A stretch of DNA of 64,000 nt from an uncultured Candidatus Saccharibacteria bacterium (GTDB lineage Bacteria > Patescibacteriota > Minisyncoccia > Phycocordibacterales > Zambryskibacteraceae). The position numbers were made by a program, and so were the translations under genes. The DNA lies in contig CAZXQA010000001.1 of the NCBI GenBank assembly GCA_964642835.1, positions 325,387-389,386 of the forward strand. The letters run 5' to 3'. Within the stretch, counting starts at the first letter, position 1; each line of letters starts with the position of its first letter. This document shows positions 20,747-21,799 of the stretch, piece by piece. The notes beneath the pieces are model-generated. The model ran no database searches and was not told the origin of the DNA. It was given only the letters and a program-made list of their open reading frames with translations.

Positions 20747-20843
20747 ATCTGCCATTATCACATGAAATAAAATATGTTTCTTAAAGATTCACCCGAGATA
20801 CCATTTACTCCTGTTCGATTCCTAGCTCAGACAAAGTCTGAAA

Positions 20844-20877
20844 TCAAAAAAGACCCACACGAAGTGGATCTTTTTTG
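20844..20877. terminator. Bidirectional terminator hairpin with an A-run on one side and a T-run on the other.
   Basis: tcaaaaaa-gacccac-acgaa-gtggatc-ttttttgatt. Confidence 0.5.
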
Positions 20878-20981
20878 ATTTGGCTCACTCTGGCAGACGA
20901 TTTTAGAACGGTAGATTGGCAAGTAGAGTACCCTTTTCCAACAATAGAGCTTGAGCAACTGAAAAATCTTTTATCCAGTTA

Positions 20982-21560
20982 CTAGTCAAGACGATGTCGA
21001 TACACAAGCTGTCTTTCATCTTTTTGAGTATCGAAGTCCTTCAAAAACAATAGCTCTTCCAGTTCAAATTGTATCGGGAGAATATTGTTCTCAACAAATA
21101 TATTTACATCATCAGTAATTTCTTTGGGAATGTTGTAAACCATACTAAGGTGGGGAGTGTAGTTTTCTCCTTCCATTTCAGTGTTCTTTGTTTCAACTAA
21201 ATCACTCAAGAGTGTTATTAACTCATTGTGTAAATTTTTTAAATCCTGATTCATATTTATCTTTATATACAAGATATCTCCATATGCTGTACCAGGGAAA
21301 ATTCCTGTACTTGTGCAATCAATTTGAATCTTTTTACTCAAAGACAGCTCTTTAATTTTCTTCACCACATCTTCTTCAGAAATTCCCGGCTTGAGATAAA
21401 AAGTTCTCTTGATTGCATAGTGTGCGTTATCCTTCAAGACATAATGTTCGGGAATTTCTGTAGTATCAAAAGACAAATTAAATTGCTTCTTCAAATTTAG
21501 TAGAGCTTCCTGTATAGGTTGCGGGGCGATTCCTACAATAGTAAATTTTGGTTTTTCCAT
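20982..21560 (-). CDS. Hypothetical protein, possibly 2H-phosphoesterase-like (a single H-x-S motif), encoded in a low-GC islet.
   Basis: 192 aa, with a PHLSMVY (HxSx) motif. The local GC content is well below the window background, and a tRNA-Asn gene follows immediately. Confidence 0.45.
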   Translation of the reverse strand: MEKPKFTIVGIAPQPIQEALLNLKKQFNLSFDTTEIPEHYVLKDNAHYAIKRTFYLKPGISEEDVVKKIKELSLSKKIQIDCTSTGIFPGTAYGDILYIKINMNQDLKNLHNELITLLSDLVETKNTEMEGENYTPHLSMVYNIPKEITDDVNIFVENNILPIQFELEELLFLKDFDTQKDERQLVYRHRLD

Positions 21561-21635
21561 ATGTATATATTACCAAGTTCGAAACAGGTTTATGGTAACA
21601 AAAAATCACCTTGCTAAATAAGGTGATTTTAGGGG

Positions 21636-21708
21636 CTCTGCGGCTAGGGATCGAACCTAGGACATCCTCGTTAACAGCGAGGCGCTCTACCAGCTGAGCT
21701 ACCGCAGA
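21636..21708 (-). tRNA. tRNA-Asn (anticodon GUU).
   Basis: tctgcggTAGCTCAGCTGGTAGAGC...cctcgCTGTTAAcgagg...GGTTCGATCC...ccgcagag, followed by a hairpin and T-run. Confidence 0.85.
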
Positions 21709-21799
21709 ATACTTCGAAATCATACCAAAAAAGCCTGCTTTGACAACCCTCAACCCGCAGCGTAGTGTGGCCCAAGGTCCGCACAACAAGGAGAGCCTT

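Follow-up and report, generated by a model that had tools for sequence, protein, structure and literature searches.

The AT-rich islet that flanks the tRNA-Asn(GUU) gene in this Patescibacteria genome is probably a horizontally acquired single-gene cassette, drawn from a low-GC donor, lodged in the 3′ flank of the tRNA gene and encoding a 2H phosphoesterase. The islet adjoins a tRNA 3′ end, deviates in composition and varies in presence, which are the marks of a tRNA-flank island. The whole stretch of DNA analysed, 64,000 nt in length, is called the window here, and the features at and around the islet are collected in Table 1.

Table 1. Features of the islet and its surroundings, in window coordinates.
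Feature	Position	Strand	Remarks
Class I methyltransferase gene (MT)	19321–20091	−	Left of the islet
DUF1059 gene	20528–20761	−	Left neighbour of the islet
AT-rich islet	20762–21632	.	0.87 kb, between the tRNA-Asn 3′ end and the DUF1059 gene start
Inverted match to tRNA-Asn T-loop/3′ T-stem, GTTCGATTCCTAGC	20813–20826	+	13/14 versus 21643–21656
Bidirectional hairpin terminator 3′ of the 2H gene	20841–20881	.	18-nt arms, 94% complementary
2H phosphoesterase gene	20982–21560	−	192 aa; PF13563; motifs H47-Y-A-I and H137-L-S-M-V-Y142
Extended −10 element, TGGTAATAT	21567–21575	−	Ends 6 nt before the 2H gene ATG
Hairpin and U run just past tRNA-Asn	21602–21630	−	Perfect 11-bp stem, −11.5 kcal/mol, z −3.7
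tRNA-Asn(GUU)	21636–21708	−	Rfam RF00005, 68.5 bits; ARAGORN 21633–21709
Promoter-like site for tRNA-Asn	21719–21746	−	TTGTCA, 16 nt, TG-TATGAT
h129, gene without a Pfam match	21800–22189		129 aa; right of the islet

The islet has a GC content of 0.342, compared with 0.536 for the window, and its AT-rich DNA begins within 4 nt of the tRNA-Asn 3′ end. The right boundary is the point at which homology with the related locus L095 breaks off (position 21634), and the left one is defined by composition alone. The 2H gene, with a GC of 0.337 and a GC3 of 0.332, ranks lowest among the 62 window ORFs compared (mean GC 0.533, sd 0.043; mean GC3 0.625, sd 0.083) and lies ∼4.6 sd under their mean GC. The sequence-only reading, a model's annotation of the letters alone, had described this gene as far below the window background and directly downstream of tRNA-Asn, and both descriptions are accurate: the gene starts 75 nt beyond the tRNA 3′ end. 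It is the only ORF in the islet. No second element gene accompanies it in the window, no direct repeat of the tRNA-Asn 3′ end was found at the distal islet boundary, and a tblastn search of the window with the serine recombinases of relatives (E < 0.05) returned no integrase or recombinase.

To the left of the islet, the DUF1059 gene, a VOC/glyoxalase gene and the class I methyltransferase gene all lie on the minus strand. Small genes of the VOC/glyoxalase or 3-dmu-9_3-mt type recur around tRNA-Asn (20066–20497, 22283–22678 and 23479–23973), and the same cluster includes DoxX and cytochrome b5 genes. Elsewhere in the window, the ORF with the second-lowest GC (50077–50382, plus strand; GC 0.379, GC3 0.41) encodes 101 aa without a family match and, with its hydrophobic stretches, looks like a small membrane protein. 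This ORF starts 28 nt past tRNA-Asp (49974–50048, plus strand) and may mark another small AT-rich islet next to a tRNA 3′ end. A tRNA-Met(CAT) called by ARAGORN at 49681–49752 (minus strand) falls below the Rfam gathering threshold (9 versus 8 tRNAs in the window).

The window tRNA-Asn gene contains no intron, does not encode CCA and points its 3′ end toward the islet. The promoter-like site upstream of it comes from a consensus scan (10/12 matches plus TG) and is a pattern match only. The hairpin just past the tRNA, at the right edge of the islet, is likely an intrinsic terminator. The larger hairpin beyond the 2H gene folds with −28.9 kcal/mol (z −7.0) on the minus strand and −21.7 kcal/mol (z −4.1) on the plus strand, with U runs flanking it on either strand. 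Hairpin terminators had been said to bracket both tRNA-Asn and a tRNA-like fragment at the far end of the islet; these two hairpins are real, and the stability of a third, small hairpin adjoining the fragment (20827–20841) is not significant (z −1.3).

The 2H gene appears to have its own expression signals. The extended −10 element keeps its position in two homologous loci, with TGGTAATAT also in L008 and TGATATACT in L003, and its end lies 6–7 nt from the start codon in all three. Approximately 50 nt 5′ of the ATG can be aligned between the window, L008 and L003. We infer that the element would act as the promoter of the 2H gene; its placement 6–7 nt before the ATG predicts a leaderless or nearly leaderless mRNA.

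The likeness to 2H phosphoesterases, proposed earlier from sequence motifs, is supported by profile and structure comparisons. The window protein scores 29.0 bits with PF13563 (2_5_RNA_ligase2), whose gathering score is 27, and 42 of 44 family members match the same domain, the best with an E-value of 3e-20. A family profile built from the 44 relatives aligns with Bacillus subtilis YjcG (PDB 2d4g) over residues 6–179 (E 8.9e-14) and with Pyrococcus 2′-5′ ligase-like proteins (E ∼1e-9), and a further profile search connects the family with proteins annotated as ThpR and YjcG. An AlphaFold (AF2) model calculated from a 60-sequence alignment (pLDDT 91.8) has the bilobed α/β architecture of the 2H fold. 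The top 50 Foldseek matches of this model in the PDB are 2H folds throughout and include CPDase 1jh6, Usb1, LigT, YjcG, AKAP18 and Acb1; the alignment behind the model consists of 2H relatives, so this result depends in part on the sequence evidence. Taken together, the PF13563 match, the YjcG profile match, the family-wide matches and the Foldseek result establish the predicted 2H fold, which was the outcome to be checked against the LigT/2H and CPDase families.

Assignment to a named family within this fold is less direct. The protein fails the ThpR equivalog (TIGR02258, 25.1 bits against a cut-off of 65.7) and the YjcG equivalog (NF010223, 22.1 bits against 129), and it scores 15 bits against the Pfam CPDase cut-off of 21. 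Pfam Acb1 does not match the window protein, and the family profile aligns with Acb1 PDB chains at E-values of 0.17–0.22.

The two histidines of the 2H signature, His47 and His137, are invariant, as is Tyr142. The distal motif is of the H-x-T/S type (H137-L-S139-M), and the proximal motif reads H47-Y-A-I; members of the close clade share the pattern H-[YF]-A-[IV], whereas the wider family has H-[ILV]-T. Tyr142 occupies the place of the Tyr in CPDase and Cpd1 and of Arg130 in ThpR. ThpR needs an HxTxxF motif and an Arg at +5 of the distal His, and the Escherichia coli ThpR T45A mutant is inert (PMC4201822). Both elements are absent from the window protein, where the two regions read H47-Y-A-I-K-R and H137-L-S-M-V-Y. 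Because Ala stands where ThpR needs Thr, and T45A is inert, ThpR-type catalysis is doubtful. Among the three close copies, synonymous sites are saturated (pS 0.77–0.92) and pN is 0.19–0.22, indicating purifying selection on the protein despite the proximal Ala.

Three known proteins provide the closest comparisons. YjcG is the family's best sequence-profile match and is alike in size and fold (Foldseek TM 0.63/0.71); it differs in having H-x-T where the window clade has H-x-A, and Gln in place of the Tyr at +5 of the distal His. E. coli ThpR/LigT (TIGR02258; PDB 4QAK, 5LDI) shares the 2H fold and both catalytic histidines, and ThpR is the usual annotation among distant members of the family, but the window protein lacks HxTxxF and an equivalent of Arg130 and is the natural equivalent of T45A. 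CPDase 1jh6 is the top structural match (E 1e-7, TM 0.67/0.71). CPDase functions in eukaryotic tRNA splicing, whereas no tRNA-splicing pathway is evident in the window host; the group I introns found in relatives' tRNA-Asn genes are self-splicing. The Tyr of the distal H-x-S/T-x-x-Y motif of CPDase acts at the phosphate, and the window protein has the same form of the motif; YjcG has no assigned activity (PMC4201822).

By its motifs and profile matches, the window protein is placed in an uncharacterised 2H subfamily nearest to YjcG, ThpR and CPDase. A cyclic-phosphodiester hydrolase is the most likely class, with real doubt. The predicted substrate would be a 2′,3′-cyclic phosphodiester or a related one, carried by a nucleotide or by the end of an RNA; in its hydrolysis, His47 and His137 would form the acid/base pair, and the phosphate would be held by Ser139 and Tyr142. 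The earlier proposal of an RNA-repair or 2′,5′-ligase-like enzyme survives only as a family label; it is not carried by the ThpR/LigT model, whose threshold the protein fails, or by the proximal motif, from which the Thr is absent.

The tRNA-Asn flank differs among relatives. L095, a metagenome contig, derives from a close relative, with 88% identity in h129 and 94% in Glx131 (window 22283–22678). Its homology with the window runs from the right flank into the tRNA exons and stops at the islet boundary; past tRNA-Asn, the L095 sequence continues with a different ORF and lacks the 2H gene, so the same gene does not occupy this position in all relatives. The ORF weakly resembles a recombinase C-terminal module (hhalign P 0.012) and is possibly a serine recombinase, although Pfam, NCBIfam and BLAST give this assignment no support. 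The tRNA-Asn gene of L095 is interrupted between anticodon positions 35 and 36 by a 215-nt group I intron (L095:608–822; RF00028, 82.3 bits). The insertion site corresponds to the junction between window positions 21673 and 21674, and tRNA-Asn is obtained once the exons are joined. Introns of this class at this site have already been described for Patescibacteria (PMC13011429). The right flank is variable as well, with an additional 134-aa gene between the h129 and Glx131 orthologues of L095.

In two other loci, a large serine recombinase gene is convergent with tRNA-Asn and overlaps the 3′ end of the tRNA: L024 (1154–2987; Resolvase, Recombinase and Zn_ribbon_recom domains) and L071 (125–1360; Recombinase domain). 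In L021, a truncated 118-aa recombinase remnant (5898–6254) lies between tRNA-Asn and the MT orthologue. L024 also contains, at 121–342, part of the recombinase C-terminus repeated in inverted orientation. In differing Patescibacteria (L016, L017, L019, L075 and L090), the MT orthologue is found immediately downstream of tRNA genes for Gln, His or Pro.

The most extended arrangement is that of L003, where tRNA-Asn(GUU) (6955–7293) forms the left edge of a 5.4-kb AT-rich island enclosing the 2H gene. The tRNA gene is split at position 35/36 by a 265-nt group I intron (Rfam 73.6 bits) and is missed by ARAGORN, which calls tRNA-Asn once the exons are joined. A perfect 187-nt direct repeat (7278–7464 = 9723–9909) starts within the final bases of the tRNA. 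It flanks a 2.3-kb segment that has no integrase and carries a 212-aa ORF, a NUDIX gene and a YecM-like gene. The segment looks like a tandem accretion, or a Campbell-type insertion through the repeat. Further along, a decayed 3′ half of tRNA-Asn (28/35 relative to a tRNA-Asn, with a CCA end) precedes the 2H gene by 85 nt, in the same orientation. In two distantly related genomes, the window and L003, the cassette therefore follows a tRNA-Asn 3′ end, or what remains of one, at a distance of 75–85 nt. For the third close copy, in L008, the 257 nt preceding the 2H gene contain no tRNA fragment. The sequence-only reading had called tRNA-Asn a classic integration target, and the variable flank, the L024 and L071 recombinases, the L021 remnant and the break in L095 agree with this, showing the tRNA-Asn 3′ flank as an insertion hot spot in this Patescibacteria lineage.

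The recurrence of tRNA ends beside 2H genes could also reflect function, with the gene tied to the tRNA as a tRNA or RNA-end processing or healing enzyme and perhaps co-transcribed with it. A tRNA 3′ end lies shortly upstream in three independent contexts, namely the window, L003 and the pair L099 (5060–5706) and L103 (3902–4549), syntenic genomes in which distant 2H members follow tRNA-Leu(GAG) by 9–10 nt; adjacency in ∼3/8 contexts compares with a rough expectation of ∼5%. However, a terminator hairpin separates tRNA and gene in the window, the gene has its own conserved −10 element, the tRNA partner varies (Asn or Leu) and is a dead fragment in L003, and four loci (L008, L097, L098 and L101) have no adjoining tRNA. 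Integration at tRNA flanks accounts for the same pattern. The intervening terminator, the separate promoter and the dead fragment make the functional link the less likely explanation, and we consider it quite unlikely. The L099 and L103 proteins are only ∼13–19% identical and their genes have near-native GC, and L102 has tRNA-Leu(GAG) 1.4 kb upstream; the tRNA linkage of the wider 2H family may be more general.

The distribution of the gene is consistent with horizontal acquisition. Close homologues form only three clusters with 63–67% identity in 5.8 billion proteins, and an exhaustive profile search of 1.84 billion representatives recovered 50 relatives of ∼190 aa each. The closest matches to the host are MAGs labelled Candidatus Zambryskibacteria, Saccharibacteria or Patescibacteria, which keep the gene order TGT-MreB-PriA-like-def-fmt-S30AE-VanY(-MT) with protein identities of 57–97%. 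True relatives are 57–66% identical to the host on the PriA-like, fmt and def proteins, whereas L003 shares 34% (PriA-like), 36% (fmt) and 45% (def). Its 2H copy is 63% identical to that of the window, and the gene is thus far closer than the genomes that carry it. Nucleotide likeness between the copies is restricted to the coding sequence and ∼50 nt upstream, including TGGTAATAT. All three close copies have a GC3 of 0.33, and short contigs with 2H relatives have 32–39% GC, which points to a low-GC source and little amelioration in the window genome.

Presence and absence follow the same direction. The gene is missing from its position in L095, and the 80 metagenomic loci anchored on the MT orthologue, six of which have tRNA-Asn within ∼1.5 kb, all lack a 2H homologue; absence is directly shown for L095 and these loci only, as the contigs of most relatives end before the locus. 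Contigs anchored on the PriA-like protein place the host among Zambryskibacteria-like Patescibacteria, and each of them stops short of the tRNA-Asn interval and of the left junction of the islet. Contigs ending inside the tRNA (L001, L002 and L100) were considered as signs of strain heterogeneity and set aside as a k-mer assembly effect, because the overlap between the two contigs is exactly 30 nt, in the conserved tRNA core. Scans of viral contigs and JGI metagenomes with close-clade patterns, and searches of PHROGs and PADLOC, gave no match to the 2H protein.

The searches of viral sequences bear on a second alternative, in which the gene is a leftover counter-defence gene of a phage or mobile element, an Acb1-like or viral 2H enzyme that would destroy cyclic-nucleotide or 2′-5′ oligonucleotide immune signals. 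The predicted model does match Acb1 and viral 2H phosphodiesterase structures (E 1e-5 to 1e-4), Pfam Acb1 touches three of the 44 family members, and the site is a mobile hot spot. Nevertheless, CPDase, Usb1, LigT and YjcG structures match equally well or better, the Acb1 structures ranking under the first three of these; the window protein itself has no Pfam Acb1 match; PHROGs, PADLOC and viral contigs are all unmatched; and phage genes are absent nearby. We regard this origin as very unlikely. That the gene is instead native, with a low GC due to expression selection or local mutation bias and a patchy distribution due to poor sampling, is highly improbable: relatives' contigs do mostly stop short of the locus, and the window and L003 copies both lie within a few kb of the same S30AE-fmt-def-priA neighbourhood, but the 2H identity stands at 63% against 34–36% for core proteins of the same two genomes, the fall in GC3 from 0.625 to 0.33 begins exactly at the tRNA end, the gene faces opposite ways with respect to that neighbourhood in the window and in L003, and L003 contains att-like direct repeats.

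The main idea of the sequence-only reading is broadly right; one element of it does not contribute to the case for an acquired cassette. A fragment at 20805–20840 had been described as an inverted T-arm/acceptor-like piece of a tRNA and as a possible trace of integration. Its match to the T-loop and 3′ T-stem of tRNA-Asn is at chance level: when the 1.1-kb region was dinucleotide-shuffled 1000 times, 18 of the shuffles gave an equal or better local alignment, one other among 51 equal-sized real window segments outscores it, and BLAST gives it an E-value of 3 across the window, with many comparable matches. Read directly, the bases 5′ of GTTCGATTCCTAGC are unable to pair as a T stem, and Rfam reports no partial tRNA at 20805–20840 even at E ≤ 10. 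A tRNA pseudogene at this position was rejected on these three grounds. A tRNA end displaced by integration forms a direct repeat; the match here is inverted, whereas the L003 remnants are direct, and it is therefore not an att remnant. The proposed check for att-like direct repeats with the tRNA 3′ end found none in the window, this inverted match being the sole one, and we judge it to be chance. L021 likewise shows an inverted match (14/15), which prompted the speculation that a large serine recombinase (LSR) 'dyad' might give rise to inverted tRNA fragments.

As an acquired cassette, the islet would be self-contained, comprising ∼50 nt of upstream sequence with the extended −10 element, the 192-aa ORF and a strong intrinsic terminator. 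The donor would have been a low-GC genome, with the composition little ameliorated since. The cassette may have arrived by site-specific integration, after which the rest of the element decayed or was lost, or by Campbell-type homologous recombination via a repeat of the tRNA end like that of L003. We infer the route from other genomes, since the window holds no integrase, direct repeat or second element gene. The idea of a remnant of an integrated element accordingly draws on those genomes. The islet resembles tRNA-associated islands in its place at a tRNA 3′ flank, its deviant composition, its variability and the presence of recombinase elements at the same tRNA in relatives. It differs in its small size, with one gene and neither integrase nor flanking direct repeat, and the recombinases of relatives are of the large serine type, compared with the tyrosine integrases usual for tRNA islands.

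A more specific and unlikely extension is that the H-x-A clade constitutes a small, integrase-less, leaderless cassette moving among distant Patescibacteria on tRNA 3′ ends, perhaps via tRNA-end repeats such as the 187-nt repeat of L003. Its product, without the proximal Thr that ThpR requires, might then have altered chemistry or an altered target connected with tRNA or RNA ends and not be a standard cyclic phosphodiesterase.

As a horizontally acquired cassette, the islet is an ordinary one, minimal in size and set at a tRNA flank; its enzyme is mildly unusual, and the whole does not amount to a new kind of system. It provides a clean, small case of gene flow into a reduced Patescibacteria genome, in which a foreign gene is accompanied by its own expression signals. 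The loci compared here present the tRNA-Asn flank as a recurrent landing site for serine-recombinase elements and tandem AT-rich islands. The gene also adds a rare, uncharacterised subfamily to the 2H phosphoesterases, one in which a Thr-to-Ala change that is inactivating in ThpR occurs naturally and is conserved.
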